64,000 nucleotides of DNA from positions 45,435-109,434 of IMG/VR virus record IMGVR_UViG_2974770163_000001. One strand, 5' to 3'. This DNA comes from a virus. Its lineage: Duplodnaviria; Caudoviricetes. Numbering within the stretch: position 1 is the stretch's first letter; each line of letters begins with the position of its first letter. The notes beneath the pieces were generated by a model. It ran no database searches. It worked only from the letters and a program-made list of their open reading frames with translations, and was not told the DNA's origin. Positions 1-24,513 of this stretch are shown here, piece after piece. The position numbers and the translations under genes are program-made.

Positions 1-602
1 GACTTACCATATTCATAGAACGTCTTGAACCAGTTATTACCACGAGGTGTGGATATGAACAATGCTTTTGAATTAGGTTTGTCAAGTGTTGGCATCAACT
101 GTACTTGGAAGGCATCCCCACCCTTATCAGAAATTGCTGCCTCATCAAATATAATGAAGTCATATGAACGACCAACTGCGGAGTCAGCGTTACCTGCTGA
201 TGCCAGTTTGAATAGTGAGCCATTCGATAACTCAATCTCCTTGTCCTTAGCATTCTCTTTTTCTGTCTTGATACCATGTTTACGAATCAGCCCCTTAATG
301 AGATCCCATCCGATGTTAGCTAATGAATAGTTAGGTGCAATAACTAGCACCAACGTTCCAGGTTCTAGTAACTTTAAGAATCCTAGGTTATATGCAATAA
401 AAGACTTCCCTACACGACGTGATACACAAGCCGTTACAAAACGGTGTCGAGGGTCGTTAAGAGAATTTATAATTGCGATCTGAGGGCGATTAGGTGTAAT
501 GCCCTCTAGATCTAACATACCTTGTACGGATAACTTAAAGAAACTATTATCACCAAAGTCCAGTAGGTCTGTGGTGTTTATGTAGTCTCTAGATACTTCC
601 AT
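1..602 (-). CDS. terL: Terminase large subunit, N-terminal part (runs off window start)
   Basis: Minus-strand frame from ATG 602: MEVSRDYINTTDLLDFG...VSRRVGKS (terminase Walker A); N-terminus resembles T5 TerL; TAATG overlap with terS stop. Confidence 0.93.
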   Translation of the reverse strand, partial: MEVSRDYINTTDLLDFGDNSFFKLSVQGMLDLEGITPNRPQIAIINSLNDPRHRFVTACVSRRVGKSFIAYNLGFLKLLEPGTLVLVIAPNYSLANIGWDLIKGLIRKHGIKTEKENAKDKEIELSNGSLFKLASAGNADSAVGRSYDFIIFDEAAISDKGGDAFQVQLMPTLDKPNSKALFISTPRGNNWFKTFYEYGK

Positions 603-1075
603 TATTTACCTTGTAGTTTAGTAATAAGCGAAGCATAGTTAGGGTCATTAATTACCTGTACGTTAGTTTGGTTGGCTACGACTCTGTTTCCTGCTTGCTT
701 AATCTTCTCAAGCTCTACTTCCATCTTCATCTCGTCCATCTTCATTCTATGGACAGTTTTTAAAATATCCATAATATCTTGATCTGAGCCGAGGCCGGTC
801 TCGTCCATTTGTTCAAGCTTCATGTTGATAATCTTATCTAGGAGAGCGAATAGCTTATGTTTATTCCTAAATCCAGATTCGTTAAACAGAGTACTGATAT
901 ACTGCTTAACTTCTGGCTTGTTATAGATTTTGACCACACCCTCTTTGGGCATATTTAAGGCTACAGCAGCCTTATCAATATCAAAACCATTATTAAAGTA
1001 CGCCTCGACTACCATCATCCCCTCAGGGTCGATGAATTCAGGCGCCAATGCTGTTGGATTAGTTGCTGGTAACAT
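602..1075 (-). CDS. terS: Terminase small subunit
   Basis: 157 aa, immediately upstream of and coupled to terL, as in T5. Confidence 0.85.
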   Translation of the reverse strand: MLPATNPTALAPEFIDPEGMMVVEAYFNNGFDIDKAAVALNMPKEGVVKIYNKPEVKQYISTLFNESGFRNKHKLFALLDKIINMKLEQMDETGLGSDQDIMDILKTVHRMKMDEMKMEVELEKIKQAGNRVVANQTNVQVINDPNYASLITKLQGK

Positions 1076-1084
1076 ATTATTTCC

Positions 1085-2950
1085 TTACGAAAGAGCAGCA
1101 ATGCTCATAGTGTACGCTGGTACGTGAAACTTGGGATTAGCATTAAGAGACTGACCATTACCGCCTTTCTTACCAGGCATCGGGGCACCTCTGTGAGATA
1201 CTGATATCTCCACATTACCATTACCTAAATTCCTGAACCAGAATGCGATATTTGTAAGCCAAGCGTTTACTACGGGATCTGAGAAGTCAGCCCACCCACT
1301 ATCACTCTTATATGATTTTACTTCCATAAATTGCACATATTTATTTATGGGTAGGACAAGAATGCTATGGTCTCCTCCTACATTTGGGACAGTATTACTG
1401 GAGAGCTTCATAATACCACCGCCTACTCTAGCATAATATGCCTCATTTGGCAACCATACTCGAACATCAGTAGTATTGAGGTTCATTATAATTGTGGAAG
1501 ATCTATTTGTAGCTAGGCCTAGTGCTACTGTGGCAATAACCTTGCTTTCGGGATTTGCCAGTGCGATCTCAGATCCCCCGAAAGTAACTCTTTTGGTTGC
1601 CCCAGGAAGTAGTTTAAGCGCCATAGACCCACCTTTCCCCCATATCGTCCGAGTTTGAGTTCCTATAGAATCGGGGGTAATTACCCACCCATTTCCGGAA
1701 TTTTTCATATCTTGAATACCAAGGAAGTTATGTTGGTTTGGTGCTAGACTTACCATGGAGGACCCCGAGGTAGTATTAATACTCCTATCTGAAGCTACCC
1801 CCAATAAGGGCATTGCAGACCTCATATTGGGAAGACCATTACCATCATATGATGGATTAGCATACATATAGGTATAACCAGACCCTGTAGTACTAGGATT
1901 GATTTGATGCAGCATTTTGGCTGCTAAGGTTTTTATAGATACTCCCCCCACCTTAAAGTCATTCCTATCTAGCTTAATCTCCCCTGTTAAAGGGACTATA
2001 TTAGTCAGAGAATACCCTGAGTTAACATTATAAGTTAGATTCAGCTTTCTGATAATAATCTTGGTAAAGGTTACCGTAGGGTAGTCCCACAACTCCATAT
2101 AGCTGGCATTCCGGTTTCCATGCCATTTAGTAGTACCAGAAATAGTACCTAGTTTACGATGATTTAACCACCAGTTAGCGTACCTATCGCGGTCACTATA
2201 ATGCTGCATATCCTTTTCGAATTTCTGTGAAGCGTTAGCTAAAGCCCCTCGGGGGGCTCCTATTAAATTGTTAAATGGAGGTACCAGAATCCCTGAGTAA
2301 GTCCCCCCATAAAATCCTACACGATAGAACTTACTGGTGTCAATGGTTACAAATGAGTTATTATACCCGCACCTCCATAATCTATCCCTAGCAACATTGA
2401 AACTGTTAGCCTCACTATCACCACCAATTCTCATAGTATTGATACCAAAAGAATCTTGATCAAGGGTGGCTTGTCTAATATCAGTAGATTTATTGCCCAC
2501 AAAGAAACCTACATGTACACCTATCCCTGGGCGCATTGTTACATGTAAATCGTAGTCATGGAAGTCCATACGCCCATCCCAGTCATCCCAGGCATCCCCC
2601 GTATCAAACGAGGAGGTTATACTATGGCCATTAATTACTTTAGAGTATTCCTTACCGTTTACTGTGTAGAATACTTCAATAAGTGTAACAGTAGAACTAT
2701 TTTTAATAGCATTTATAGCACCCGCAGGTAGTGACCCTACTTTATACTTGCCAAGAATATTCCAACCACCGTATGTATCTCCCACAGCGGAAGCATCAAA
2801 ATTTGTTAGTGGAATAGTCCATTCATCAGTGATGAACACATGTGGCATTGAGGAGTGAAAAATAGTATCATTGCCAACCCCATTTCTAGCATCACTGGAT
2901 TCGGTTAAATGTAGGACAGTACCAGGACTCCCTTTTGCGTAAAAACCCAT
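1085..2950 (-). CDS. oad: Receptor-binding tail tip protein (T5 pb5/Oad-like)
   Basis: 621 aa; N-terminal TIFHSSMPHVFI resembles pb5 TIFHSDMSHV; position next to terS. Confidence 0.85.
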   Translation of the reverse strand: MGFYAKGSPGTVLHLTESSDARNGVGNDTIFHSSMPHVFITDEWTIPLTNFDASAVGDTYGGWNILGKYKVGSLPAGAINAIKNSSTVTLIEVFYTVNGKEYSKVINGHSITSSFDTGDAWDDWDGRMDFHDYDLHVTMRPGIGVHVGFFVGNKSTDIRQATLDQDSFGINTMRIGGDSEANSFNVARDRLWRCGYNNSFVTIDTSKFYRVGFYGGTYSGILVPPFNNLIGAPRGALANASQKFEKDMQHYSDRDRYANWWLNHRKLGTISGTTKWHGNRNASYMELWDYPTVTFTKIIIRKLNLTYNVNSGYSLTNIVPLTGEIKLDRNDFKVGGVSIKTLAAKMLHQINPSTTGSGYTYMYANPSYDGNGLPNMRSAMPLLGVASDRSINTTSGSSMVSLAPNQHNFLGIQDMKNSGNGWVITPDSIGTQTRTIWGKGGSMALKLLPGATKRVTFGGSEIALANPESKVIATVALGLATNRSSTIIMNLNTTDVRVWLPNEAYYARVGGGIMKLSSNTVPNVGGDHSILVLPINKYVQFMEVKSYKSDSGWADFSDPVVNAWLTNIAFWFRNLGNGNVEISVSHRGAPMPGKKGGNGQSLNANPKFHVPAYTMSIAALS

Positions 2951-2978
2951 GTTTTCTCCTTAATAATTAAAAAATTAG

Positions 2979-3007
2979 TTGCGTTCTGCCTCAATTCCTG
3001 ATATAAT
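2979..3007 (+). promoter_or_regulatory. Sigma70-type promoter
   Basis: TTGCGT-17-TATAAT followed by ATTTATATAAATT as in the other strong promoters. Confidence 0.75.
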
Positions 3008-3114
3008 ATTTATATAAATTAAAGAAGCAAATCGATAATAAACTAATTATACAACAGATTTGCCACGATGTAAAGAACATTTTTAAAATCAATCTAGACA
3101 AAAAGAGGTATAGT

Positions 3115-3636
3115 ATGGAAGTTATTTATAAAACATTTAATGGTACTGCTAGGACCGATTTAATACTAAGGGGTGAGAGAGCTAACCTGCTCAAATTTGA
3201 CCAATCACACATCTTAGGCGAAGTACTAAAGGTAACACCAGTTCACAATTTGACAAACAGACTAATAGATCTGTATATTGTGTTCAACAATAAGGAAGCT
3301 ACCGTTATAAAAGAAGTAACAAGTTATGAAATAAGAGGTGAGTACGGAGAATACAAGGATTCTTGTGAATTGTACCTCTTACCACCAATACCCAAAGGAC
3401 CTGCATGGAAAGCAGAACAGCAGCTTCTATCCGAGCACTCAGCGGAGATAATAAGACTCTTCAACAGCTACGAAGATCTAGATGAGAAGAAGCTAGATGA
3501 GATACATACTCGTCATGAGAAGTTAGAGAGGGAGGCTAGAGAAGCGGCAAGGATTGAGTTTGCTAAAAGCTTCTCCGCTGCGAAAGATCAGTTAATAAGT
3601 TGGATTAAGCCTCTAGGATGGAGTATAGTACAATGA
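3115..3636 (+). CDS. Hypothetical protein at the position occupied by llp in T5; no lipobox
   Basis: 173 aa ORF with GAGG RBS downstream of a promoter. Confidence 0.75.
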   Translation: MEVIYKTFNGTARTDLILRGERANLLKFDQSHILGEVLKVTPVHNLTNRLIDLYIVFNNKEATVIKEVTSYEIRGEYGEYKDSCELYLLPPIPKGPAWKAEQQLLSEHSAEIIRLFNSYEDLDEKKLDEIHTRHEKLEREAREAARIEFAKSFSAAKDQLISWIKPLGWSIVQ

Positions 3637-4252
3637 CAACTATACTTGTTATAATTATATTCGAGATATGTATATCTTCTACAATACTTAGCTAGGATAT
3701 GTTATGGGAATCTTAGAAATTACAGCCATAGTAGGTTTAGTATATGTGGTTATAGGACTACTTACCTGGGCAGCTCACAGAGGAGTATACTAGATGATAC
3801 CAGCTTGGGTATTAGGAGCAGTAATTGGTGGGGTAACAATCAGTATACCGTTAGCCTTATTTGTAGGAGCATGCTACGATGATTAGTTATCCGTTATTAA
3901 TAGTTTGTGCAGTAGCTGGATCTATAGTTGGCGCATGTTTGGGCATAACTGGGTATATGCCTTTAATTCTACGATTAGCAGGTAAACATGAGGAGAAACA
4001 TAAAGATGCGGAAGTCTGATGATGGGAAAAGCATAATCTTCACTGAAAGTGAAGCCATGTGGTTCTTCCTCCTGTTCCCAGGCATATGGTTTACCTTAGT
4101 TCTTGGTGGAATAGCAATTCTGTTACCATTCTTTATTTAGACTTAGTGAGGCTTTTATGGACGTAGTGAAACTTTTAGAGATTGTAGTGGGTTTTGGTGG
4201 GATGGCATTAGTCTTCTTACACTATAACGACTTGTGGATCTTTCGTAAGTAG
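3633..4252 (+). other. Six tandem small hydrophobic ORFs (3633-3695, 3704-3793, 3794-3886, 3879-4019, 4006-4140, 4157-4252)
   Basis: 20-46 aa each, one hydrophobic segment each, GGAG/AGGA/GAGG RBS, abutting or overlapping start/stop codons. Confidence 0.7.
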
Positions 4253-4268
4253 TAGTGAGACTTTAGTG

Positions 4269-4442
4269 AGACGCCTAAAGACTCTTTCATCGAAAAATCT
4301 TGATGCTTATAGACCATTGAGTGTGGTAGAACCGTTTAGACGCCTAAAGACCTTTCATCGAAAAATCCTGATGCCAAGTTCCCATTGAACGTGGTAGAAC
4401 CGTTTAGACGCCTAAAGACTAATTCATCGAAAAATCCTGATG
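4269..4442. repeat. Tandem repeat, ~68-bp unit, 2.5 copies
   Basis: AGACGCCTAAAGAC...TTCATCGAAAAATCYTGATG starts at 4269, 4338 and 4406. Confidence 0.95.
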
Positions 4443-4520
4443 GGTTACGTGTGGGTGTGTGCAATAGGGGTGGGGGCTTGGGCTAGTCTCCGAACCGCCC
4501 CCTATTGTATCACGGTTGCT

Positions 4521-4760
4521 TTAGTTTGTCAACGGTTGCACACTCAAAAGATTTGTAAAGTTTTGTAAGATAATTCTTAAAGCTAGGTCTTTACTATTTG
4601 GGCTACCATCTGACAAAGCACTTGATGCTATATCTATAATGGCATCAGCCGCTACCCGATTAATAACTAAGTAACCTTTAGCATTTAATTCTACTACTAA
4701 TTGATTAAGTTGTTCTTGGCTCATTTCTTTGTTAGGGCTTAATTCGATAACGTTTGACAT
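4521..4760 (-). CDS. Pre-early hypothetical protein
   Basis: ORF with GAGG RBS before MSNVIELS. Confidence 0.65.
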   Translation of the reverse strand: MSNVIELSPNKEMSQEQLNQLVVELNAKGYLVINRVAADAIIDIASSALSDGSPNSKDLALRIILQNFTNLLSVQPLTN

Positions 4761-4856
4761 AATGACCTCACACAATTTAAGAATATTGATATTAGCTGGT
4801 TAACGTCTAACTAAGTAACTAACTAGGGCTAACCAACTAATAGAGATTATATCAAA

Positions 4857-5591
4857 CTAGGCAGAAATAGCAACCAGTTTATTAAACTTACTGCTTAAAT
4901 AGTCTCTTTCTTCCTGAGTATAACTACACCATGCCGTTTCGATATGTTCCGCTAATGCTTCAGGGTCGTGTAGTTCTTCCATCACTTGATCAATGAATTG
5001 TTCACCAGCCATGCGATAACCAACGTTTAACACGTCATTAACAAGCGTAGCATCTACAACTTGAAAGCCCATTTCACGAGCAACAGATAACACGCCTTGA
5101 TGATCATCGTAAACGGTTATAACAGCGTTTGGATACATAGCTTGCAAGATTTCAAAGTATTTCCGCTTATATTCAGCATCACGGCTATAATAAACGTCTT
5201 TGATATCTTCAAGGGCAAAATAACGGGCTAAGGTAGTTCTGCTCATGATACTGGCGGCTTGCGGTTTATTAGTTGTTAAACCTTGTTTGCGTAGGTAGTA
5301 ATAATCGGATTTATACATTGTTCTGGCTGTTACTATTACGTTATGAGTATCACCCTTATTGATATTCTCTTTCATGACAGCCGCTAAGGGTAGCAGTGTA
5401 TCAGCTTGTACTAGCTCATGAGTACAAGCATTTTGGATATATCCAGTTAAATCTAGGTTGCCCGTTTCTTCGTCTAGGTATGGTCTAACACGATGAAAGC
5501 TATTTATTACAGTGCCATCAAGGTCAAAGATATTAAGAAACTTGATATCATTAAATACTCGTGTTTGTTGCATGGTTGTTACCTCTCGCAT
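4857..5591 (-). CDS. dmp: Deoxynucleoside-5'-monophosphatase (HAD family)
   Basis: IFDLDGTVINS HAD motif I, YDD motif IV; first conserved T5 pre-early gene; true start may be ATG 5573. Confidence 0.9.
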   Translation of the reverse strand: MREVTTMQQTRVFNDIKFLNIFDLDGTVINSFHRVRPYLDEETGNLDLTGYIQNACTHELVQADTLLPLAAVMKENINKGDTHNVIVTARTMYKSDYYYLRKQGLTTNKPQAASIMSRTTLARYFALEDIKDVYYSRDAEYKRKYFEILQAMYPNAVITVYDDHQGVLSVAREMGFQVVDATLVNDVLNVGYRMAGEQFIDQVMEELHDPEALAEHIETAWCSYTQEERDYLSSKFNKLVAISA

Positions 5592-5659
5592 TTAAGCGGT
5601 TTATTTTTGGAGTTCTAAGTATAAAGAAAGCCCCTGAGTATATCAAGGGCTTAACAGTG

Positions 5660-6124
5660 TTATTCTTCGGTGAACAAAGCAGGCTGAACAGGATTAATAA
5701 AAGTTACTTTAATTTTGTAAGGGCTTTCGCTTCTAGCATTAATAGGTGATACTAGCACTTGCCAGCCAGCTTCTACAAAGTCCGCTAGGTCTGAGAATAA
5801 AAAATCACTCTCTGTCATTAATACAATAACTTCGGTTACATTAACCTTAGTCGTATCAATATCAATAAAGGAGTAATAATCCTCTAATGATTTTGCAACA
5901 TTTTCTATATGTTGAGTAGGCAAGCCACCCGTTACACCCTCCGCAATGTTGCCAAAAATACGGGGTAAAGCCGATTCGATAGCAGCCGCAACGCTTGCCG
6001 CTTCTTGGTCGTTGTTGATCAAGCCTTTACCATAACGAATAATTGAGCCGTCAACAATGTTAATATTCTCAATAGCCCCGTTGTCAAATGTTTTGCCGTT
6101 GCTGTATACAGTGATCATTTTCAT
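5660..6124 (-). CDS. Pre-early hypothetical protein
   Basis: 154 aa ORF in the A2-A1-dmp operon. Confidence 0.75.
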   Translation of the reverse strand: MKMITVYSNGKTFDNGAIENINIVDGSIIRYGKGLINNDQEAASVAAAIESALPRIFGNIAEGVTGGLPTQHIENVAKSLEDYYSFIDIDTTKVNVTEVIVLMTESDFLFSDLADFVEAGWQVLVSPINARSESPYKIKVTFINPVQPALFTEE

Positions 6125-6146
6125 GGTTGTTCTCTCTTATTAAGGT

Positions 6147-6347
6147 TTATTCGATTTCGTAGCCATCACTATCTAGGATAGTAGAATCTACATTTTCGTT
6201 AAGTTGTTCTTGCTCCGCTTCGGTACGGATAGCGGCTTGCTGATCATATGTTAAGGAGTTCCATTCTTCAACGGATAACCCCGTTTCTACAACGTGGGCA
6301 GCCCCTAGCCCATAACCAAAAGTAACATGAATGTTAACAGTTTTCAT
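6147..6347 (-). CDS. Pre-early hypothetical protein
   Basis: 66 aa, abuts upstream ORF, AGGA RBS. Confidence 0.7.
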   Translation of the reverse strand: MKTVNIHVTFGYGLGAAHVVETGLSVEEWNSLTYDQQAAIRTEAEQEQLNENVDSTILDSDGYEIE

Positions 6348-6578
6348 TTAATTGTATTCCTGTTTAATTCGTGCTATTTGGTGCATTGGGTAAAAGTATT
6401 CAGTATCGGGCGTGTCAGTGAAACTCACAAACAAGCCAGCCGTGTCAATATCAACGGTATCGACATTCTCAAATACTACCTCTTTTGCATCTTCTTTAAG
6501 AAAGCCGTTAGCTTTTAACTTAGACATAACAGCATCAATAAAGATAACCTTAACAACAGTTACATGTTTCATATTCAT
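6348..6578 (-). CDS. Pre-early hypothetical protein
   Basis: 76 aa, GGAG RBS. Confidence 0.7.
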   Translation of the reverse strand: MNMKHVTVVKVIFIDAVMSKLKANGFLKEDAKEVVFENVDTVDIDTAGLFVSFTDTPDTEYFYPMHQIARIKQEYN

Positions 6579-6634
6579 TGCTCCAATGGTAGCCCCTACA
6601 CAATATAGGGGCGTTGGGTTTAAATTTAAATTAA

Positions 6635-8398
6635 TTAAGCGCGATACTTGCCATTTGTAATTCTTACTAGCTGGCGTTGCCCGTTGTTATAGGTAATCAA
6701 GTGCGTTTGAGTCCAGCTAGAAGCCCCGATATTATAGCCCATATCTAATGAGCCAGCAACTCCAGCAGTGTAACATAAGCCGTTTACGCTTGCACTATGA
6801 GTGTGACCAGTATTTAAGCGTCCTAACTTCGCAAACTGTTTTGGATTCCCTCGTGAGCCATTAGCCCCAACATGACCATGACAGCCCATTTCTACGCCAG
6901 CGACCTTGAAAGATTCGTCAACAACTAAGAAGCGTATTTGCTCGGCATTCTCTAGCTTAGCTATCTTTTTAAGCCCTACTTCTAGCGCATTCCAGCCACT
7001 GGCGGATTTATGTTCCGCAATATGGCGATATTTATCAAGGTTCATTTCATGATAGAGAATGGCGTTAGCAGGATCTAGCCCTATATTAACATCCCATGCT
7101 TTCAACCAATTTGCTAGGGCTAAATCGTGGTTTGACTCAACGACAACTATCTCACTAAATGGGCGCATGATATCGCGGAAAATGTTAGCCGTATCAATGA
7201 GATCTTGTTTAACGCTTTCTTGCCCTAAATAATAACGCTCCGCAATAAAATCATAATCACGTCTATTGTGATGATTTCGGCTTGTAAAGTCGTGGCTATC
7301 ATGACAGATAGTAAACTTAGGCTTTAACAAGTCAATCATCGACGGGTAGCCATGCAAGCCAGCACCCCATGAACAAGCCGCTACAACATGATCAATCTTT
7401 TCTGCATGAAGATCACCGAACTGTAAAGCAGAAACATGATTTTCAGCTCTAAACACTTGATCACTTGTTACATAAGTATCAAGATCATAAAACGAGCCAT
7501 CATCATTCATGCATTGTAAATGGCGTATAAATGGCGTGTCGTTATCGTCGAATTCTACTAAGATTGCACCATAGCAATGCAATGATTCTGCTTTCTGACC
7601 AGCTAGGCGCTGAATATAATTTCGATGCGTAACCGTTCCCGTTGTAGTTAACTCTCTAACTAGCTCACCTTTTAGAGCAGGAATATTAAACATCTGATAC
7701 TTGGCAGCAGGTACAACCGCATGATGATTGCCTATAATGCTTTCAATGCCTGTTAATGGGTTAATAGCAGTAGGGGAAATGCATAAAGCACCTAAGAAAG
7801 ATACTTTCTTGCTTTCGCCTAGAAACACGTTTTCCTCAACAAAATAAGGGGTTAATTCTGGCGCATACCACAATGAATCATCTTGCGCGGTCGGATTCGC
7901 GTAGCCTTTCTTGTTATATGCAAATTTAGAGATGATTAATTCAGCCCCTAAATATTCTGCATACGTTTCTAAGGATTTCAGGAAAGGCACGTTAACAGAC
8001 GTGTTATTTTGAGCCGTTGTCAAAATAAATGCCTTGCCTGATTTAACTTGCCATTTTGATTGAGCAGGTTTGAGCGAGCCACCATATACAGGCAAATCAG
8101 GGTTATCAGCTTTACGGGCTTTAGCCTTTGTTACTGGCTTGTTCTCATTCAGCCATACTCTGATAGCAGCCGTGAATTCTGGTTTAATGACTTGCTCCCC
8201 GTCCTCGGTGTCATACGCTAGATTTTCCGCTATAACATCCGCTAAACTAGACAGGGCAAACGCTTCGTTTGCCGTTTTATCTTTTACGGATTCTAGGCGT
8301 TTTCCATAGTAATTAACGCCTTTAGCGCATTCTAGCAGGTCAGCCGCCAGATTTTTATCTGCTAATAGGTCTGAAATAGTTTTTAAAATGGGATTCAT
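6635..8398 (-). CDS. A1: A1 protein (host DNA degradation / second-step transfer nuclease)
   Basis: 587 aa; TTAQNNT plus metallophosphoesterase motifs GDLH, SNHD, HGH, GHTHS; between dmp and A2. Confidence 0.92.
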   Translation of the reverse strand: MNPILKTISDLLADKNLAADLLECAKGVNYYGKRLESVKDKTANEAFALSSLADVIAENLAYDTEDGEQVIKPEFTAAIRVWLNENKPVTKAKARKADNPDLPVYGGSLKPAQSKWQVKSGKAFILTTAQNNTSVNVPFLKSLETYAEYLGAELIISKFAYNKKGYANPTAQDDSLWYAPELTPYFVEENVFLGESKKVSFLGALCISPTAINPLTGIESIIGNHHAVVPAAKYQMFNIPALKGELVRELTTTGTVTHRNYIQRLAGQKAESLHCYGAILVEFDDNDTPFIRHLQCMNDDGSFYDLDTYVTSDQVFRAENHVSALQFGDLHAEKIDHVVAACSWGAGLHGYPSMIDLLKPKFTICHDSHDFTSRNHHNRRDYDFIAERYYLGQESVKQDLIDTANIFRDIMRPFSEIVVVESNHDLALANWLKAWDVNIGLDPANAILYHEMNLDKYRHIAEHKSASGWNALEVGLKKIAKLENAEQIRFLVVDESFKVAGVEMGCHGHVGANGSRGNPKQFAKLGRLNTGHTHSASVNGLCYTAGVAGSLDMGYNIGASSWTQTHLITYNNGQRQLVRITNGKYRA

Positions 8399-8473
8399 TT
8401 ATATAGCTCCTAATTAAAGGGTTTTAGTGGTAACGAACTAGCCACCTCCGAAAAGGTGACTAGGGCGAATCAC

Positions 8474-8938
8474 TTATAAGCGATCGATGCCGTTTTCTTC
8501 CATAATGCCCTGTAATACATCATCAGGACATACCTTTTTAACAATCATAATGATTGTATCAAGGTTGGCTTTTTCAAGACTAGCCCAATCGTCTTTTTCT
8601 TGATCGTTGTCGGACATATCACGCTGAAGGGCACGAATCAGAGTGATTTTTTGTAATTTCTTACCGCCGCCAACTGGCTGCTTTACTTCAAGGGCACGAT
8701 AAATTTTGTTGCCGTTTTCATCTTTAGAAGATGACAACTTAGTACGGACAGCCGTAGCCGTGTACGTTTCACCATCACCGCTAATTTGTTCACCGATAGA
8801 CGCTAGATTATCGACAGCGTTTGCCGCTGTGATTTCCGCATCAGTTGGGGCGGTTGGGTCAGCAAATGCCGCTAAATATAAATCGATAGCTTTTGCGGTT
8901 ACTTCTTCATTCCAGCGTTTTTTAGATGGAGTAGACAT
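8474..8938 (-). CDS. A2: A2 DNA-binding protein
   Basis: WNEE..KA..Y, VRTKLSS, VGGG, ASLEKA motifs shared with T5 A2; directly upstream of A1. Confidence 0.88.
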   Translation of the reverse strand: MSTPSKKRWNEEVTAKAIDLYLAAFADPTAPTDAEITAANAVDNLASIGEQISGDGETYTATAVRTKLSSSKDENGNKIYRALEVKQPVGGGKKLQKITLIRALQRDMSDNDQEKDDWASLEKANLDTIIMIVKKVCPDDVLQGIMEENGIDRL

Positions 8939-9137
8939 AATTTAATACCTCATTTTTCATGGTTTAAGTTTAAGTTATACACTTCTCATTAGTGTATTAT
9001 GAATAGAGCCTGTCTGTCAAGCCCTATTAATTACACTATCAAGAGGAGTCTAAGCAATGGCAACTGCTTAATGAAGCCCTGAATTTCAAGGCTTGTTTAA
9101 GCATCCAATCTTAGCTATTTCACCGTGTTTTCCGTAT

Positions 9138-9204
9138 TGTTAAAGAGCGTGGTTAGTTGCCTAACCTTTGAATCTATCTTATATCAGCCGCCTGGTTAAG
9201 TCAA
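9138..9204 (-). promoter_or_regulatory. Pre-early promoter with boxB-like hairpin and boxA
   Basis: TTGACT-17-TAAGAT; hairpin GGTTAG-GCAA-CTAACC; boxA CGCTCTTTAACA (9138-9149). Confidence 0.8.
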
Positions 9205-9208
9205 GCGT

Positions 9209-9508
9209 TTATTTCCAAATACTTCTATTAATGCTTTGTTGCGATTCTATCGTTTCTACAACTTGAATCACTATACCTAGATTATGCCATGCTTCGCTTG
9301 CCTTGTCAAACAGTTTTTTATCACCGTTGAAATACTGATCTAGCGTAGCTTTGTAAGCGTTGCGAATTATCTTAGCTTCTTTCTTAAGCCTTGTCAAGTC
9401 AATTTTATGATCAATTCGCTCGGTTAACGCTTCGTTTGCTGTTATGCCTTGTGAAGCTACTAAGGTACATAACACTTGGTTAAAAGATTGTTTTGCCATG
9501 TTTGCCAT
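9209..9508 (-). CDS. Pre-early hypothetical protein
   Basis: 99 aa, own promoter. Confidence 0.7.
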   Translation of the reverse strand: MANMAKQSFNQVLCTLVASQGITANEALTERIDHKIDLTRLKKEAKIIRNAYKATLDQYFNGDKKLFDKASEAWHNLGIVIQVVETIESQQSINRSIWK

Positions 9509-9546
9509 TCCTCAATAGTTGGGTAGGCGGCTGATATAAGTTAGAT

Positions 9547-9603
9547 TATTAAAGAGCGTGTTTCTATGGTTAGTATCTTAAAGCCTAGTAAAGTTTTTGT
9601 CAA
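9547..9603 (-). promoter_or_regulatory. Pre-early promoter with boxA
   Basis: TTGACA-17-TAAGAT; CGCTCTTTAATA at 9547-9558. Confidence 0.8.
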
Positions 9604-9945
9604 TTACTTATTTGAGTATTGCATAACATTTTCAATATATACGATTCTAGCCGCTATATATAAGCAACGATAGAATCGTAAAGCTAACTGATCTTTACAT
9701 ATCCCATAGTGAGTGGGCATTTTTGACGCTTCGGGAAATTTTTCTTCTAGGTCTGATAATAAGCGAACTAATGAAGCCCATTTAACAGAACCATTATCAA
9801 GCCCCTTTTCAAGATCTAACATGATGCAAGTTGCTACCTTATCGATATCATTTCTAACCACTATAGGAAATGATAATAATTCTAGTATTAACTGTAATGT
9901 ATCATTGCTTAAAAAGGTTGCTTTAATCTTTCTTACTTTTGCCAT
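9604..9945 (-). CDS. Pre-early hypothetical protein
   Basis: 113 aa, GGAG RBS. Confidence 0.7.
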   Translation of the reverse strand: MAKVRKIKATFLSNDTLQLILELLSFPIVVRNDIDKVATCIMLDLEKGLDNGSVKWASLVRLLSDLEEKFPEASKMPTHYGICKDQLALRFYRCLYIAARIVYIENVMQYSNK

Positions 9946-9994
9946 TTGTACTTACTCCGATAGTATACACTAGGCTTTAAGATACTAACCGTAT

Positions 9995-10121
9995 TTTTAA
10001 AGAGCGTTACTACTAGGAACTTATCCAGTCATTCATATGCCACTGGCGGCTACTTCGTGGGCTTTCCTTGCCTTGTTCCTTACTATGTGGAGTATATTAT
10101 CACACTGATTAAAGAAAGCAA
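9995..10121 (-). promoter_or_regulatory. Pre-early promoter, structured leader and boxA
   Basis: TTGCTT-16-TAATAT; leader closed by AGGAAC/GTTCCT; CGCTCTTTAAAA at 9995-10006. Confidence 0.7.
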
Positions 10122-10299
10122 CTATTATTTTAGATTATTTTGCTGGCGGTAGGATATAAGGAAACGGGCGCGTGATTATACACAAGTTAACTAGGAAGTA
10201 AAGAAAAACTATTTAGTAAAAGATGCAAAAAGAGCTTGCATTTAATAACCGTGGTGCTAATATGTATCACATCGAAAGGCAAACAAAGGAGGGAGCAAA

Positions 10300-11379
10300 A
10301 TGACCGTCAAGGCACTTAAAAGCAATCGAGCGATAGCTCGAAGCGGTCACATTAACACAATTGAGCAATTAAGACAATCAGACGTTGGGGGTTTTCCATC
10401 AACTAGTATTGTTAGCCGAGCTACGCCTAGGCAGCTTAATAATATAATGCATACGGCAGGCAATGAGGAGCAATCTGTATTAACTCCTTTAAGTAGTCAA
10501 AGTGCGTATAAACATATTAAAAATTTGCTTGATTTACTTGTTTCCGGTGTGGTAGAATACATTACAATCTACTCGCCAGATGGTACGTTAATAAGTGATC
10601 ACTATTATTCTACACGTCGATCTATGGAGGAGGATTGCGATTCCGCTTACTCTAAGGCTAAGGACGATTTACTAATCTTAGCTAGATCTAGTAATGGCAT
10701 CATGTTAACATGGGGTAGCTATGACGCTAGAAAGTCGGCAGGTGTCGGGGTCAAGGTAGAGTGTGAGGTTTTCAATCAAAATGATAACCTATTTGACGCT
10801 ATCTATGATATATTTAACCATGCTAACTATAACGATTTAATTGACGTGGATTTATCCGATAAGCTACGCAATCAGGGCGTTATTATACAGGGTCATACAG
10901 TTAGCGAGAACAAGTATACACAAGTAATTATAGAGGAATTTTTAAAATCATCTATAAGCGAAGCTGGCGAAACAGCAGAGCAACCAATCGAAACCAAAGA
11001 GGAAACTAGCAAAATGAAAACAACATTCAGCACTATCTTAGCAGAAAACAAAGCAGCAGCAATCAACGCTGGCGAGATGGAAACGGGGCGTTTAGTCGTT
11101 AATCGTATTGTGGCAGTCGTTAAAAAGCGTGCTCCGCTAATGGTTAAAGGTTACATTGATACACCAGTAGGGCGCATTGCAGTAGCAAATTTATTTGCCG
11201 CTTTAGTGCGAGAATATCTACCTGATAACGCACTGGCAGGACGTGCGGCAGACGGGGCGGTGAAGTCGGCAGCTTATGAAGTATTGCGCGATATTGATAT
11301 ACCAGCAATTCTGGAAGAAGTATTGGCAGGATTCAAAGAAGCGGAACCAGCACCAGCAGACGAAAAGATCGCACTGTAA
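10300..11379 (+). CDS. Pre-early hypothetical protein
   Basis: 359 aa, AGGAGG RBS, promoter TTGCAT..TAATAT upstream; possible internal start at MKTTFS. Confidence 0.8.
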   Translation: MTVKALKSNRAIARSGHINTIEQLRQSDVGGFPSTSIVSRATPRQLNNIMHTAGNEEQSVLTPLSSQSAYKHIKNLLDLLVSGVVEYITIYSPDGTLISDHYYSTRRSMEEDCDSAYSKAKDDLLILARSSNGIMLTWGSYDARKSAGVGVKVECEVFNQNDNLFDAIYDIFNHANYNDLIDVDLSDKLRNQGVIIQGHTVSENKYTQVIIEEFLKSSISEAGETAEQPIETKEETSKMKTTFSTILAENKAAAINAGEMETGRLVVNRIVAVVKKRAPLMVKGYIDTPVGRIAVANLFAALVREYLPDNALAGRAADGAVKSAAYEVLRDIDIPAILEEVLAGFKEAEPAPADEKIAL

Positions 11380-13667: not shown

Positions 13668-13860
13668 GATCATATATATTAAACGCTTTATATCCCTATA
13701 CTGGCATTTTATAGGGGTAGTCGAAGCGATGCACGAAAAGGCAGTTAGTGAGAATCACCAATACGGGATTGACCTAACTAGACGTAAACTAGACCGCCTT
13801 AAAATTGATCTGCTAGGCTGGCAAGATAAGCTGATGCACGAGATAAAAAATACAAAATAG
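13660..13860 (+). CDS. Pre-early hypothetical protein
   Basis: 66 aa, overlaps upstream stop. Confidence 0.6.
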   Translation: MNEIIYIKRFISLYWHFIGVVEAMHEKAVSENHQYGIDLTRRKLDRLKIDLLGWQDKLMHEIKNTK

Positions 13861-13924
13861 TCATTGACACTATAGCCCTTTCGATGTATATTATATGCAT
13901 ACACCAAAACGAGAGGGCTACAAA

Positions 13925-14194
13925 ATGATTATTCGTATTTCTGGCATTAACATAAATAACGATTTAGATATGTTTGACGCACTGGCGGGCGCAGGTTATG
14001 CAGGGGCACTAGATCGCCTAGACGATATAACAGCAGAGTTAGACGTGAGAGATTATGCCTTTAGACAACGGGCAGGGATCGAGGAAGCAGATGTATTACA
14101 AATGATCAGTGAGCTTACATCATTAGGACTAACTCTAACGATAGTCGGAGAACCTAACACTAGCCTATTAGAAGCCGTGATTGCAGGCAACTAA
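13925..14194 (+). CDS. Last pre-early hypothetical protein
   Basis: GAGGG RBS before MIIRISG; promoter TTGACA-17-TATATT at 13864-13892. Confidence 0.75.
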   Translation: MIIRISGININNDLDMFDALAGAGYAGALDRLDDITAELDVRDYAFRQRAGIEEADVLQMISELTSLGLTLTIVGEPNTSLLEAVIAGN

Positions 14195-14214
14195 CAACCA
14201 TAACAACCATAACA

Positions 14215-14240
14215 GCCTTGCAGAAATGCAGGGCTTTTTT
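14215..14240 (+). terminator. Intrinsic terminator
   Basis: GCCTTGCA-GAAA-TGCAGGGC followed by T6. Confidence 0.9.
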
Positions 14241-14352
14241 ATGCCCCTAGCCTCTCAAGCCCCTATAAGACTATCCCTATCACAATTAAACCTCTCACAA
14301 TGGCTTACAGTGCGTTTCATTGGACAACCGCATTATATGCTATCAGAGACTA

Positions 14353-14368
14353 CTGTATAAATAAACAG
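14353..14368. promoter_or_regulatory. LexA (SOS) box
   Basis: CTGTATAAATAAACAG = CTG-N10-CAG with AT-rich core. Confidence 0.85.
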
Positions 14369-14404
14369 GTTCAAAACTGTGGATAAGTCCTGTGGATAAG
14401 TCGA

Positions 14405-14420
14405 AATGAATCGATTCAGC
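14405..14420. promoter_or_regulatory. Cra/FruR-type operator
   Basis: AATGAATCGATTCAGC vs consensus GCTGAATCGATTCAGC (14/16). Confidence 0.75.
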
Positions 14421-14428
14421 AAGCCCCC

Positions 14429-14445
14429 AACTGGTCAGACCTGTG
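14429..14445. promoter_or_regulatory. FadR-type operator
   Basis: AACTGGTCAGACCTGTG vs AACTGGTCnGACCAGTT. Confidence 0.75.
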
Positions 14446-14455
14446 GATAACTTCT

Positions 14456-14486
14456 AAATGCAAGTGAGAAGCATTCGCATTCATTT
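14456..14486. promoter_or_regulatory. Fur-box-like site
   Basis: AAATGCAAGTGAGAAGCATTCGCATTCATTT; core 12/19 to GATAATGATAATCATTATC. Confidence 0.6.
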
Positions 14487-14558
14487 AGCCGTCTAAACGT
14501 CTGGACGTCTAAACGTCTAGACGGCTGGACGTCTGGAAGGCTGGACGTCTAGACGTCC
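14487..14558. promoter_or_regulatory. Nine tandem MetJ boxes
   Basis: AGCCGTCT AAACGTCT GGACGTCT AAACGTCT AGACGGCT GGACGTCT GGAAGGCT GGACGTCT AGACGTCC; consensus AGACGTCT, 8-bp period. Confidence 0.88.
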
Positions 14559-14686
14559 CTCTGCGCTTATGTGCATAATCGGGATCGCTTTTTCAAAACG
14601 TTACATGCGAGCTAGGCCACATGTGAATTTCTGAAAATGCAAATTCCAAAATTCTCGAAAAAATTTTTCCATTCGTAAAATATTCT

Positions 14687-15558
14687 CTCCTGCTCCCTGG
14701 CTGTTTCAATTTCCCTATACTATTTACTCTTCCACCAGCAGTTCTCCAGCCTCAAAAATAAAATGCAAATATAAAACTGAGTGCGTCTTTTCTATGGAAC
14801 TCCATTTTATTTTTGATTCTCAGGAATGTGATAGCCTTAGTTTATAAATCAGTTTTGAAAACTCCGAAAATTTTAAATGCCCAGATCTATCCCAGCAATC
14901 CAGTCAGCCAGGGAAGAGGAGAAAACCAAAGAAATCACTTGACAACCAGTTTTGCTAAAGTCAATTAACCAAATTGATCCACCAGCGTTTTATAAACTAG
15001 AATATTATTTGCCCTCAGAATTTAGGTGTGAGCAATTCTCCTGTTCCCCTTCCGAATCTATTGATGCAGAGGATTCTAGGAATGCAAAATATTTATCGCT
15101 GCTAATTTGAGTTGTGGGAAACCTTGGGAAGTTGTTTGGTGGATGCTTGGGGATTTGATCAGTTGTGCCGGGGAACAGGAGAGGATTTTGTGGGATGCTC
15201 AGAAAAATCGTTGTTCGCAGAAAAACGCATTTAAAACAACCCCCCTGGTAGCTAACCGCCCTATATCGAAAAATTATGACCTTAAAGGTGGGTAAAGGGC
15301 TTGAAAAATAAAAAATTCATGAGGCCCCAAGAACTGGATGATTCAACGGTCGGTATAAACAAATCTCTCCTGTTCCCAGGCTGTTTTAATTAGATATGAT
15401 GTGAGATGTGGGTAGGATGAACTTTTATTGTCTAGATATGATGTGGCACGTGGGTAGTGTGATGATTTATAAGGGTTAGGAAAGTCTAGGAGTGCACAAT
15501 TTGTGGAGGGAAGTCACGAGAAGCTTATAGATGTGGAAGTTGAAAAAGGGAACAGGAG
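14687..15558. repeat. Dispersed motif CTCCTGTTCCC(W)GGCTG, six copies in alternating orientation
   Basis: 14687(+), 14905(-), 15038(+), 15167(-), 15367(+), 15548(-). Confidence 0.85.
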
Positions 15559-15656
15559 AAATTTTTATCTAGGAATATCTAGGTAAATGAATCTCACACC
15601 TAGCAGAATTCCAGGGTATCAAAGGTTCCAGTTCTATTATTATGTTTAGTATAGAT

Positions 15657-15684
15657 AATAAAAAACCTCCTTGAGCGGAGGTTT
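15657..15684 (-). terminator. Intrinsic terminator ending early transcription
   Basis: AAACCTCC/GGAGGTTT stem with T run on minus strand. Confidence 0.8.
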
Positions 15685-15938
15685 ATTGGTTTTATTAAAC
15701 GAGTGGTTTTTAAAGAATAGAAGATCCCCAAGGATGCATAGCAGTCGCATGAAGCACTTACACGAGACTATGTACGTTGTACCGTGATGTAATCTGTCTC
15801 TCCTTTGGTTCCGAGCCATATACATCACTTCCTAGTCAAGTAAGTGCTTTGCTGCTGTATTGACGATAAATCTTGTTTATCTAATACAGATATTATAACA
15901 TCAAAACTTTGTCACGTCAATGAAAAAATTTAATTCCG

Positions 15939-16925
15939 TCAAAGGTCAGTTGCACCGGGTGGAGGGCAACCGTTGACTCCTATACTTGGACTTAGATCTT
16001 TCTTAGGTGGAGTTCTCTTAGGGCTTACAATACGTTTAATCATGAATTGTTTGAATCCATTTAGTCCCACCGATATTGCTTTTACTGCTGAGTTTGATGA
16101 GGGTTTCAAAGACTTAGTTTCTTCTCTGTTAAAGTCTCCTAGTTCCATGCCTAGGTAAGAGAGGTAAGTCACGAAATCTTCATCAGAGTGCGCAAGAGCT
16201 TGCTTCACCCATTCTGGGGCCGGTGCCTTTATATGTGACCACATCGCCAATGTTGATGCGATAAATGCTTGGGAAGTATTATGTGCATACTGTCTAGTGT
16301 ATGGTAACGTTGGCTGATCAATCAGGATTGTATTTCCTTTATATAAAATACTATCTCCTGTTAATGTACCATTGTATACTACTTCCGGTATATCCTTTTC
16401 ATCTAGCAGTGAGGTTAGTGGGGGTAATTCTACTACCTGTGTTCCTTCCCAGAACTCTGGTTCATCGGACATATACCCTACAACCTTACACATGTAGTAA
16501 CCAGTCTTTTGTGTATGTCTGATTCGGTTGAACTCCTTGAGTTTATCCTTAGACTTAGATTTGTAATACCTTAGAGGTTGATACTCTGGCTCAAAGATAG
16601 ACTTGAACGCCACATCCATTGCAAATCTAGAGTTATGGATTCTTACAGCTGGGAAACTTACCTCTTTGTCCTCATGAATAAGTAAGTCAAAGTTTGCCAC
16701 TGTCCTAGCTTCTGATAAGTCGATAGCTCCATGATAGGAGAGGAAGTGTAACGGATAAGCTGATATGCTACGTATACACTTTCTATCTGCTGAGGGATAA
16801 CGCTTGGTAAAGAAGTCCACTAGGCGCAACTCGTACTCGGAAAGCTCGGAGGTCTTCTTACCATTTAAGTCCATTAAGTCTTGATACGCTTGTTGAACTA
16901 GGGTTGGGTTTACTGATGATAACAT
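15939..16925 (-). CDS. Early hypothetical protein adjacent to the terminal repeat
   Basis: 328 aa, AGGAG RBS embedded in the repeated motif. Confidence 0.85.
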   Translation of the reverse strand: MLSSVNPTLVQQAYQDLMDLNGKKTSELSEYELRLVDFFTKRYPSADRKCIRSISAYPLHFLSYHGAIDLSEARTVANFDLLIHEDKEVSFPAVRIHNSRFAMDVAFKSIFEPEYQPLRYYKSKSKDKLKEFNRIRHTQKTGYYMCKVVGYMSDEPEFWEGTQVVELPPLTSLLDEKDIPEVVYNGTLTGDSILYKGNTILIDQPTLPYTRQYAHNTSQAFIASTLAMWSHIKAPAPEWVKQALAHSDEDFVTYLSYLGMELGDFNREETKSLKPSSNSAVKAISVGLNGFKQFMIKRIVSPKRTPPKKDLSPSIGVNGCPPPGATDL

Positions 16926-22301: not shown

Positions 22302-24513
22302 GCTCAGGTCGTTGAGTTGCTATCCACCCTAGTGCTACTGGTCTAGGGATAACAAGACCTGTTTCTTCAAATACGCGCTGAATCCACTTGATTCCAGATT
22401 CATACTCGCCAAACACATAGTTAGCTTCTAGCCAATCTAGTGCGTCGGTATCAAAGATTTCCATTACACGGTACTTCACCAACTTAGAGCCACTAATGTC
22501 TAGTAGCACGTTAGCCCAAGTACCGAATGGTAAATCAGTTTCTGTCATTTCATTTAATAGCTGTACATTTAGGCGGTTATCCAATGAAATATACAACTGC
22601 ATAAATAAATCATTAAACTGACCAACACCATCTGGTGTAACTTCCCAATAAAGTTTAGAGATTGTATCTCTCATTAAATGTGTCTCCACTTAAACGACTT
22701 AGCTGGTAGTACTAAGACTTCTGCTGGGGCATTATGGATATTTGTTACGTCTTCTAGTGTTACTGTTTCTGGCGAGTAAGACCCACTTAGCTCTTTACGA
22801 ATTACCACACGTGTCCTTATTTCCCCTTCAACCGCTATGATAAACGGGGTAAACATTGGAGTAAGGATCTTACCTGAATTCCACGCCTCTTTTATAGAGG
22901 TCTGTAATCTGCGATAAATTGAGTCAACTGCTTCAGAGTCAACGTCAATAAACTCCAGCACAGATGCTAAAGTTGTTGCTTCATCATAAGTTAGATAAAA
23001 TTCCATTACTAGTACCCCACATCTATCTCGTTATCAACAATACGCTTAATATCCGCAATTGCCTTAACTTTCTGTGTTCTGTGGATATTCATATCTGCTA
23101 CTAAGTTGGTAATTTCTCTACCTAGTGAGCCAATTTTATTATCAGCACTAGAACGAATATTGTCAATTTGATTCTTAAACTCAGATTGCATTGCCTCTAG
23201 ACGAGCGTCTGCCTGTTCCATAGCCTCCTTTGCTATTTTCTGATAGTCTTGATACAAGGATTCTGCCACACGTTTGTCCTTTCTAGCTTTCATAGTATTA
23301 TATGATGCGTATATTGACCACACTAAACATACTAGACCAAAGATCCAAGCCCCTACCGCTACTGTAAAAGGAGTCATTATTTCTCCTTAGTCAGAGACTT
23401 AACTTTTTGCGTAAAGCGATCAATACGCTCACCAGCAAATTCGAAGCTAAACTTCCAATTCAGTTCAAACCAAGAAGAATTACCATCTTTCTTACGAGCT
23501 AAATTAGCCTTACTTCCTAGTACTAAGGTTATTGCAATAATCCATAGTAAAAATGCCATATTAATGTTTCTCCTTATTTAGATCTGCTAAGTATAGGTCA
23601 ATCACTTTTTCTGCTGATTCTAGTGCTCGATCAGCTTCTGTTTTATAGTCTGTAAATAAAATAGTAAGCTCAATATAGTTATGTTTTAGCTTTAGATATT
23701 TACAATACAGAGATAGTGCTACTATAGTACTTAGTATGGTAATAGCACTCAGTAGAATATAGAATATTGTCATTCTACTTCTTCTCTTTCAATTTGTTTT
23801 CAGCTTTACGCAGATCACGAGATAGTGCACGATTTCGTGCTTCTTCAACTTTTAGTAGTTCATACTGATTACGTTCTGCCTTACGAGCTTTATCACACTG
23901 CATAGCCATATTGCTAAGTGAACCATATAATGCGTTTAGAGCTTCGATGCTCATTTTATCAAACTGCTTACCTAAATGATCATCCAAACCTGTTAAAATT
24001 AACAGAGTGTTTACCATTTGTGCTTTGGTTAAGTTCAGTTCTTGCATGTGGTTAGGTACTGTAGCCATAATTTATTTTCCTTTCTTCTCATCAATTTATA
24101 AATATATTATACAGAAAAATTGGCATTTTAGCAAATGAATTTTTAAGATAAAATCATTATATCTTCTAAAGCCAGAACCATCTTCTTAAAGCGCTGCATC
24201 TGTGTATCCCATGCAGGGTTCGGGTAGGAGAATTCACCTAAGTCTAGCTTAGCCATACTTTCACGAAGTGGCATTGCTGTTGCTCGCACACGTATGAGAT
24301 TGTCAGTATCGATAAATACTTCTACATTGAAGTGCCCCGGCTTAGTAGGATTAGTAGCTAAAGAATACCAATCCTTGCATGCGGAGTGAGCATATACATC
24401 CATATCATATTCTTCGCAGATTTCTTCTACAGCCCACTTAAGCTTAACTAATGCAAGCACTTCCGGTGAAGACTCCTCTAGAAGTGCTTTTAGTTTTTCT
24501 TTATTATCCATGA

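Follow-up and report, generated by a model that had tools for sequence, protein, structure and literature searches.

The DNA considered here is a window of 64,000 nucleotides (positions 45,435 to 109,434 of the IMG/VR virus record IMGVR_UViG_2974770163_000001), and the element in question is a stretch of about 200 base pairs (bp) within it, positions 14351-14558, that is crowded with sites resembling the operators of host regulatory proteins. The source record, of 109 kilobases (kb), has Providencia phage vB_PreS_PR1 (Demerecviridae, Priunavirus; hereafter PR1) as its closest named relative. Window positions 1-9000 align with PR1 103662-112243, running from the right-end genes of PR1 (terminase and others) into its annotated repeat region, and therefore the two terminal repeats have apparently been collapsed into one by the assembly. 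Genes for the transfer protein A1 and for a DUF7566 protein lie upstream of the array; the former is a 587-amino-acid open reading frame (ORF) at 6635-8398 on the minus strand, with 98.1% identity to the 'DNA transfer protein A1' of PR1. Downstream of the array the DNA is gene-free for about 1.3 kb. The counterpart of the array in PR1 is found at about 9485-9691, within the annotated terminal repeat (1-10461) and about 770 bp from its inner boundary. The stretch is gene-free, follows the rightward pre-early genes and is placed within the left terminal repeat, close to the inner boundary of that repeat, as in T5-type phages; it is accordingly assigned to the injection-stop region ("Repeat Region 3" of T5) of a Priunavirus phage close to PR1. 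The stop made by T5-type phages after about 8% of the DNA has been transferred is described as unexplained for more than 50 years and as needing a living cell but no new proteins. Stop DNA packed with unusually strong predicted sites for host regulators thus offers a testable lead on the mechanism of the pause.

The window was scanned with consensus strings that were not drawn from a curated matrix library. The features recognised within the array are the following.

14351-14370, unstranded: LexA-type palindrome, the counterpart of T5 'palindrome D', matching 16 of 20 positions of the consensus, with an exact CTGT-N8-ACAG core.
14378-14386, minus strand: DnaA box 1, an exact 9-mer.
14391-14399, minus strand: DnaA box 2, an exact 9-mer 4 bp from box 1, the two forming a 13-bp tandem unit.
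14405-14420, unstranded: Cra-type (LacI-family) palindrome, its 12-bp core perfect to the consensus.
14429-14445, plus strand: FadR-type (GntR-family) box, 15 of 17 positions to the consensus, sharing 4 bases with DnaA box 3.
14442-14450, minus strand: DnaA box 3, an exact 9-mer 51 bp from box 2.
14454-14488, unstranded: imperfect palindrome in the form of an inverted repeat, a diverged copy of a conserved T5-type unit; this is the 'Fur-like box' of the initial annotation.
14487-14558, unstranded: nine in-phase 8-bp Met boxes, a putative MetJ-type super-operator with a period-8 repeat.

The initial annotation, made from the letters of the sequence, had read this stretch as an array of operators for six host regulators, and every string that it quoted is present where it had been placed. 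At the level of sequence the multi-regulator content is real for DnaA, LexA, MetJ and Cra, ambiguous for FadR and absent for Fur. The sites assigned to LexA, Cra and FadR stand alone in the window, each being the single match in 64 kb: for the LexA 20-mer with up to 5 mismatches at 14351 (4 mismatches), for the Cra 12-mer core with up to 1 mismatch at 14407 (none), and for the FadR 17-mer with up to 3 mismatches at 14429 (2 mismatches). The spacer of the LexA-type palindrome is A/T at 8 of 8 positions. The bare CTGT-N8-ACAG core occurs twice, at 14351 and at 23990; the second palindrome (23990-24005) also has an all-A/T spacer and lies far from any DnaA box. Exact DnaA 9-mers number five in the 64 kb, and three of them fall inside the array, within 73 bp and in one orientation. 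The two-box MetJ pattern, with up to 3 mismatches, is found at six positions in the window, all in 14487-14558, where the in-phase 8-bp period and the nine boxes previously proposed are confirmed with 61 of 72 matches. Eight of the boxes carry one mismatch and one carries three; no single box is a perfect consensus, and the majority consensus built from the nine phage boxes is the MetJ consensus itself.

Compared with a simple binomial background (independent bases, window composition, 206 bp), the expected chance ranges from 4e-4 to 2e-24 per site type: 4e-4 for LexA, 1e-4 for Cra, 2e-5 for FadR, about 1e-10 for the three DnaA boxes and 2e-24 for the nine Met boxes. When a factor of 300 is applied for the range of possible regulators, the values for the single sites become 0.12 for LexA, 0.03-0.04 for Cra and 0.006 for FadR, so that the LexA site taken alone is marginal. 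A chance origin of the array as a whole was rejected on these estimates and on the lack of other matches in the 64 kb, and the array is best described as holding predicted sites of operator quality, far beyond chance, for DnaA, LexA, MetJ, Cra and a FadR-type protein.

The same sites, taken by their coordinates, were also used as queries on stretches of the Escherichia coli K-12 genome, a comparison that avoids reliance on the consensus strings. The targets upstream of fruB, fabA, fadL, fadI and recA are those that we take to be the published operators. In 10 kb, the Cra-type 16-mer has its two top matches upstream of fruB (14/16 and 12/16), and the 14-mer agrees with a site there at 13 of 14 positions. 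For the FadR-type 17-mer the top matches are promoter-proximal sites of fabA, fadL and fadI (13/17 each); in the fabA stretch one site in a coding region ties with the promoter-proximal one. The best match of the LexA-type 20-mer in an 8-kb recA stretch falls in the 79-bp gap upstream of recA (14/20), where T5 palindrome D reaches 17/20. A phase scan of 10 kb returned four-box runs upstream of metJ/metB (24/32) and of metF (22/32) and nothing else. The phage array, with nine boxes matching at 85%, is therefore to be set against four-box K-12 operators at 75% and 69%, and it is about twice as long.

The likeness to these operators extends to their construction and stops at their genes. Like the met operators of metJ/metB and metF, the phage array is made of tandem 8-bp boxes in strict phase with a common consensus, and its box variants resemble the kinds found in the natural K-12 operators. 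Unlike them, it has no met gene or conserved promoter, belongs to a lytic phage and lies beside a nick site; beneath it no promoter of a methionine or S-adenosylmethionine (SAM) gene was found, about 1.3 kb downstream being gene-free, with a promoter-like site of 9/12 as the sole candidate. The LexA-type site shares with SOS boxes such as that of recA the CTGT-N8-ACAG palindrome and the A/T spacer, but it lacks a conserved promoter or gene and is paired with DnaA boxes as a fixed, family-wide module. Similarly, no regulated gene is attached to the phage counterparts of the Cra operators of fruBKA and of the FadR sites of fabA, fadL and fadIJ, and the FadR-type box, unlike the fab and fad sites, is fused to a DnaA box.

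Sites stronger than natural operators might be taken for a repressor sponge that titrates host regulators and derepresses host genes, as had been suggested in the initial annotation. Repressors are present at hundreds to thousands of molecules per cell. Each infecting genome brings in one copy of the array, and T5-type phages are described as degrading host DNA within minutes, so that derepression would have little target; a sponge is accordingly very improbable.

The Fur assignment did not survive. Up to 6 mismatches to the Fur 19-mer gave 41 matches in the window, none of them in 14300-14600, and the element at 14454-14488 is instead a diverged T5-type palindromic unit: it aligns with units of T5 and of Aeromonas and Vibrio phages, its Fur-like core having diverged. 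Against K-12 iron promoters the window's element gave a mixed result, while the T5 repeat units match the fhuA promoter (15/19) and the fepA-fes gap (13/19).

The architecture of the stretch closely follows that of T5 (GenBank AY587007). In T5 a terminator is followed by palindrome D, by inverted repeats D'/C' with direct repeats B, and then by direct repeats C with palindromes E-J; after these come the 7.9% nick and direct repeats D. Palindrome D matches the LexA consensus at 19 of 20 positions, and the 'major single-stranded nick 1, 7.9%' is CCCTGCGC at 9661-9668. The stop signal of T5 occupies the same place, gene-free, after the pre-early genes and their terminator and near the inner edge of the left terminal repeat, and the order of parts is alike in the two phages: palindrome, paired DnaA boxes, a spacer of about 51-52 bp, a DnaA box, repeats, nick motif and D-type repeats. 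The window phage differs in having a single arm, with no second LexA/DnaA module upstream in the window; in a spacing of 4 bp in the DnaA pair, against 3 in T5; in a spacer that, unlike that of T5, holds Cra- and FadR-type sites; and in the replacement of the Fur-like units of T5 by one diverged unit and nine Met boxes. The features that surround the array fit the same plan.

13895-14194, plus strand: final rightward pre-early ORF before the gene-free region, 99 amino acids (ORF list), corresponding to PR1_16.
14214-14235, plus strand: intrinsic terminator ending the rightward pre-early unit, predicted from 9 pairs with a T run; PR1 has the identical sequence, and its annotation also calls it a terminator.
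14557-14566, plus strand: homolog of the T5 7.9% nick site, CCCT(CT)GCGC, CCCTCTGCGC, recognised by comparison with T5.
14570-14578, minus strand: relaxed DnaA box (match to a relaxed pattern) in the first copy of an element like T5 'direct repeat D'.

The Met array stops 2-3 bases short of the nick-site homolog CCCTCTGCGC, and a nick-type motif also follows the arrays in Aeromonas, Vibrio and Klebsiella phages. The 99-residue product of the last pre-early ORF belongs to no Pfam family.

A sample of 12 T5-like phages was compared, consisting of the window phage, PR1, T5, Shivani, a Klebsiella phage, Pectobacterium phage DU_PP_V, Aeromonas phage AhSzw-1 and the Vibrio phages Chester, D411, VPT02, D254 and VCPH. 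The order of the palindrome/DnaA module is common to T5, Shivani and the Klebsiella, Aeromonas and Vibrio phages. Each of the 12 has one or more LexA-core palindromes, 20 in all, and for 15 of these an exact DnaA box is no more than 120 bp away. Their density is 10.8 per 100 kb in T5-like phages, compared with 1.5 per 100 kb across other loci totalling 1.5 Mb. Most copies keep CTGTAT/ATACAG invariant and differ in the four central bases, the pattern expected from LexA recognition.

The slot before the nick motif is filled differently from lineage to lineage. Runs of Met boxes occupy it in PR1 (9 boxes, 61/72), AhSzw-1 (16), VPT02 (9), D254 (8) and Chester (4+4); Fur-like units occupy it in T5, Shivani and the Klebsiella phage. 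VCPH carries a 15-bp unit repeated 8.8 times (L182 1655-1802) that contains a CAACTGTTG palindrome, and D411 a 48-bp unit repeated 3.9 times (L009 4791-4976); neither array could be matched to a host regulator. Cra- and FadR-type sites in the stop region are confined, among the 12, to the window phage and PR1. Between the window phage and PR1 the Cra-type palindrome is kept, with changes compatible with the consensus, and DnaA box 3 differs by one change. The block at about 14353-14700 is nearly identical in the two phages, non-motif parts included.

Closer relatives were sought with three queries. The A1 protein found 4 loci in IMG/VR, all distant; the DUF7566 protein gave 56 pattern matches in metagenome contigs, none confirmed; and a 28-base stretch of the window had no match in metagenome contigs or in genome contigs. 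Conservation at the level of sites within Priunavirus is consequently read from PR1. A degenerate five-box Met pattern run against IMG/VR was uninformative, returning 20 stretches of which 19 are perfect simple microsatellites and the exception is the Aeromonas phage itself. Rhizobium phage RHph_TM34, considered for the idea of an alpha-proteobacterial LexA box, has its A1 homolog in a T7-like replication module and shows no comparable region.

The exchange of arrays in this slot bears on the proposal, also made in the initial annotation, that the array is a multi-input sensor in which the release of regulators (upon damage, low SAM, fructose or fatty acids) times second-step transfer. LexA, MetJ, Cra and FadR are each controlled by a ligand or by cleavage, as textbook knowledge has it, and the early breakdown of host DNA could plausibly trigger LexA cleavage. 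However, relatives swap the regulators in the slot, so that conservation does not extend to a fixed set of inputs; DnaA and the row of Met boxes would remain occupied after LexA cleavage; and restart is stated to require A1 and A2. The proposal is weakened by the quite different arrays of the relatives, which suggest that dense occupancy outweighs particular signals, and we hold it to be improbable.

The T5 region is described classically through its repeats, its inverted repeats and its palindromes, and an alternative of this kind deserves consideration: hairpins, cruciforms or bends, or else sites for virion-carried or phage-encoded proteins, would account for the stop, and the likeness to operators would be incidental. 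Consistent with it, single-stranded DNA of 14340-14600 folds better than shuffled sequences (z = -3.15, with 2 of 200 shuffles as good), and the 15-bp and 48-bp arrays of VCPH and D411 match no host regulator. It leaves unexplained, however, why palindromes should match LexA, Cra, FadR and MetJ sites well enough to pick out K-12 operators. Moreover, the 109-kb phage genome encodes no MetJ, LexA DNA-binding or RHH_1 domain, and when 10 pre-early ORFs were compared with Pfam DUF7566 was the single family above cut-off, one further ORF having a match at chance level. Complete ejection into proteoliposomes, as described in the published account, argues against a stop that is purely DNA- or virion-borne. 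We therefore consider an explanation by structure or by phage proteins unlikely.

The published facts are the ground on which host proteins come into view. According to one preprint, the T5 stop occurs without protein synthesis while ejection is complete in FhuA proteoliposomes, the stop region carries DnaA boxes, the host factor of the stop has not been identified, membrane-bound DnaA is proposed for it, and the restart of transfer requires A1 and A2 (Davison, 2020, bioRxiv 10.1101/866236). A role for host proteins, rather than for newly made phage proteins, fits these facts. The accessible text of a 2023 paper on BF23 mentions repeats and DnaA boxes and nothing further, and speaks of functional studies as lacking; that of a 2026 preprint on T5 describes the region as dense in repeats and palindromes. 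In the Davison preprint (10.1101/866236) the words LexA and MetJ have 0 occurrences each, and a literature search joining LexA or MetJ with T5-like phages yielded nothing relevant, DnaA boxes alone being in print, although key older papers were not covered by it. The DnaA boxes of the stop region are thus already known, and its LexA-, MetJ-, Cra- and FadR-type content was not found in print, in agreement with the initial annotation, which knew of no such multi-regulator reading; the same limit on the older papers applies. A search for work on rifampicin and first-step transfer found nothing.

Clusters of related composition are also present outside the T5-like phages. The exact 18-mer that comprises the FadR-type box and the start of DnaA box 3 recurs in 35 unrelated IMG/VR contigs, which lack A1, range from 44 to 49% G+C and form 18 groups by their flanks; in them it nearly always stands between two DnaA boxes. 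The recurrence of a FadR-type box fused to a DnaA box in unrelated viral contigs clouds the assignment to FadR. DnaA boxes paired across 9 bases occur commonly in IMG/VR, and the spacers between them are of many kinds. In two of the 35 contigs, L022 and L036, the DnaA/FadR-type cluster adjoins terminase genes; among named relatives of the terminase the nearest, at 43-46% identity, come from uncultured phages and from Streptomyces phages. Next to lysozyme, terminase and portal genes, a gene-free block (L036 3220-3570, also in L016) combines one perfect LexA-core palindrome with four exact DnaA boxes, the FadR-type box in two copies, and two TGCACC-N5-GGTGC palindromes, which we presume to be NtrC-like.

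A Met-like array was likewise found in a jumbo coliphage of the genus Asteriusvirus, Escherichia phage vB_Ec-M-J (OQ718158, locus L053): 14+4 boxes at 765-917, matching at 75%, within the gene-free DNA of an annotated terminal repeat of 21.5 kb, some 0.8 kb after the repeat begins. It shares with the window phage the type of 8-bp box, the long phased row and the location in gene-free terminal-repeat DNA; it differs in belonging to another phage family and in its distance of about 0.8 kb from the record's left end. No DnaA/LexA module was seen by eye beside it in 1.76 kb. A short CAGTACTGA-type motif recurs many times near this array. In Vibrio phage HNL01 (MZ456352, L181 1504-1535; an Aliivibrio phage) four intergenic Met-like boxes match at 25/32, and this run, which has the size of a natural one, could be an ordinary MetJ operator carried by a phage.

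These locations give some substance to a role at genome ends or in packaging, in which host proteins brought in by the arrays would bend or mark the DNA close to the start or end point of terminase action, the position at the injection pause being secondary; IHF assists in a comparable way at lambda cosB. The PR1 array about 770 bp from the inner boundary of the annotated terminal repeat, the 14+4-box array of OQ718158 at 765-917 of its own, the clusters of L022 and L036 directly beside terminase genes, and the repeats flanking the T5 repeat boundary, which start right after the nick site, are all in keeping with it. On the other hand, the arrays are placed away from the cut site itself, and a strong likeness to host operators is not needed by such a model. 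We regard a packaging role as rather doubtful.

The reading that we favour, tentatively and as a possibility somewhat short of probable, is that a coat of host proteins serves as clamp or brake and keeps the DNA in place at the injection pause. As the DNA enters, abundant host DNA-binding proteins would occupy their sites at once: DnaA would take the three exact boxes, LexA its palindrome as a single dimer, and MetJ-SAM the Met boxes as a cooperative row of at most nine dimers; Cra would probably join them, and possibly FadR or another protein of the GntR type. At the cytoplasmic mouth of the injection channel the resulting coat would cover some 200 bp, perhaps tethered to the membrane via DnaA as Davison has proposed, and it would keep the DNA from moving until transfer is restarted by A1 and A2. 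Related phages fill the slot with different arrays, which suggests that selection has acted on dense and long-lived occupancy and not on the metabolic signals of the regulators. From the sites, whose quality, position and conservation are matters of observation, we infer both the binding of proteins and its effects. The earlier idea of a landing pad for host proteins, as opposed to mere secondary structure, is in this way retained in part: it has the operator-quality sites on its side and fits a stop independent of protein synthesis, with Fur removed and FadR clouded.

Several points weigh against a clamp. T5 pauses though it has no Met, Cra or FadR boxes. In physical terms, a stop of incoming DNA by proteins bound inside the cell is difficult to conceive, and the prevention of back-sliding is easier to picture. 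A Met-box array also lies about 0.8 kb from the left end of the jumbo coliphage record, inside a terminal repeat, and we know of no report of two-step injection in jumbo coliphages such as that of OQ718158. The LexA/DnaA/FadR-type clusters that unrelated contigs carry beside terminase genes point to a role at genome ends or in early control and not to an injection stop. The near identity of the whole block to that of PR1 means that conservation does not single out the motifs. Furthermore, the Cra and FadR parts presuppose that Providencia encodes both proteins, and the consensus strings of the scan did not come from curated matrices.

A wider form of the clamp may be stated, although we think it unlikely as a whole. 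The host factor of the pause would be not one protein but any abundant host DNA-binding proteins, recruited lineage by lineage through stronger-than-natural operators at the end of the first-step DNA, with LexA and DnaA everywhere and MetJ, Fur, Cra, FadR-type and other proteins according to lineage; the coat would hold the DNA until A1 and A2 act, and operator arrays near genome ends would perhaps serve likewise in jumbo coliphages and other phages. If host regulators do load here, lytic phages would be using host repressors as structural parts and not as gene switches, similar arrays near the genome ends of other phages could be explained, and cheap experiments on the pause would become possible. 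If the proteins fail to bind, or if their binding is irrelevant, the arrays stay an unexplained yet well-mapped feature.

The transcriptional surroundings of the array support a further alternative, in which the sites are operators or a roadblock insulator that silences weak promoters and blocks rightward pre-early read-through toward the leftward early genes. The ORF list contains no ORF of at least 30 amino acids in 14361-14592, in line with the initial annotation, and its statement that there is no obvious promoter is roughly right, except that two promoter-like sites overlap the array, one of 10/12 on the minus strand over the LexA box and one of 9/12 at 14550-14579. Promoter-like sites number 11, where shuffles give 5.2 +/- 2.3, convergent terminators at 14214-14235 (plus strand) and 15684-15663 (minus strand) flank the block, and the cluster of L036 is in a divergent intergenic region, where promoters are expected. 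Nevertheless, the promoter-like sites, read by eye, are not kept in PR1 or in the Klebsiella phage, about 1.3 kb downstream is without a gene, no Rfam family comes near threshold in 13800-16100, and nine Met boxes go far beyond the needs of repression. An insulator of this kind is, in our estimate, quite unlikely.

The rest of the gene-free region has repeats of its own. The 12-base motif TCTCCTGYTCCC and its complement occur in at least 6 copies of alternating orientation at 14686-15566, and a 36-base direct repeat is present at 14676 and 15356. Beyond these, a strong promoter-like site on the minus strand (15920-15892, TTGACG-17-TATAAT, 11/12) faces the two-way terminator at 15663-15684, an arrangement indicative of a short transcript in which no ORF is convincing. 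In three other T5-like phages, overlapping Fur-type 19-mers are found close to the far left of the terminal repeat (L004 12819-12843, L003 228-252 and L007 13307-13331). Mismatches number 2 for the Klebsiella phage and 3-4 for T5 and Shivani, and the 19-mers lie inside or beside the first gene, which is dmp or a kinase gene.

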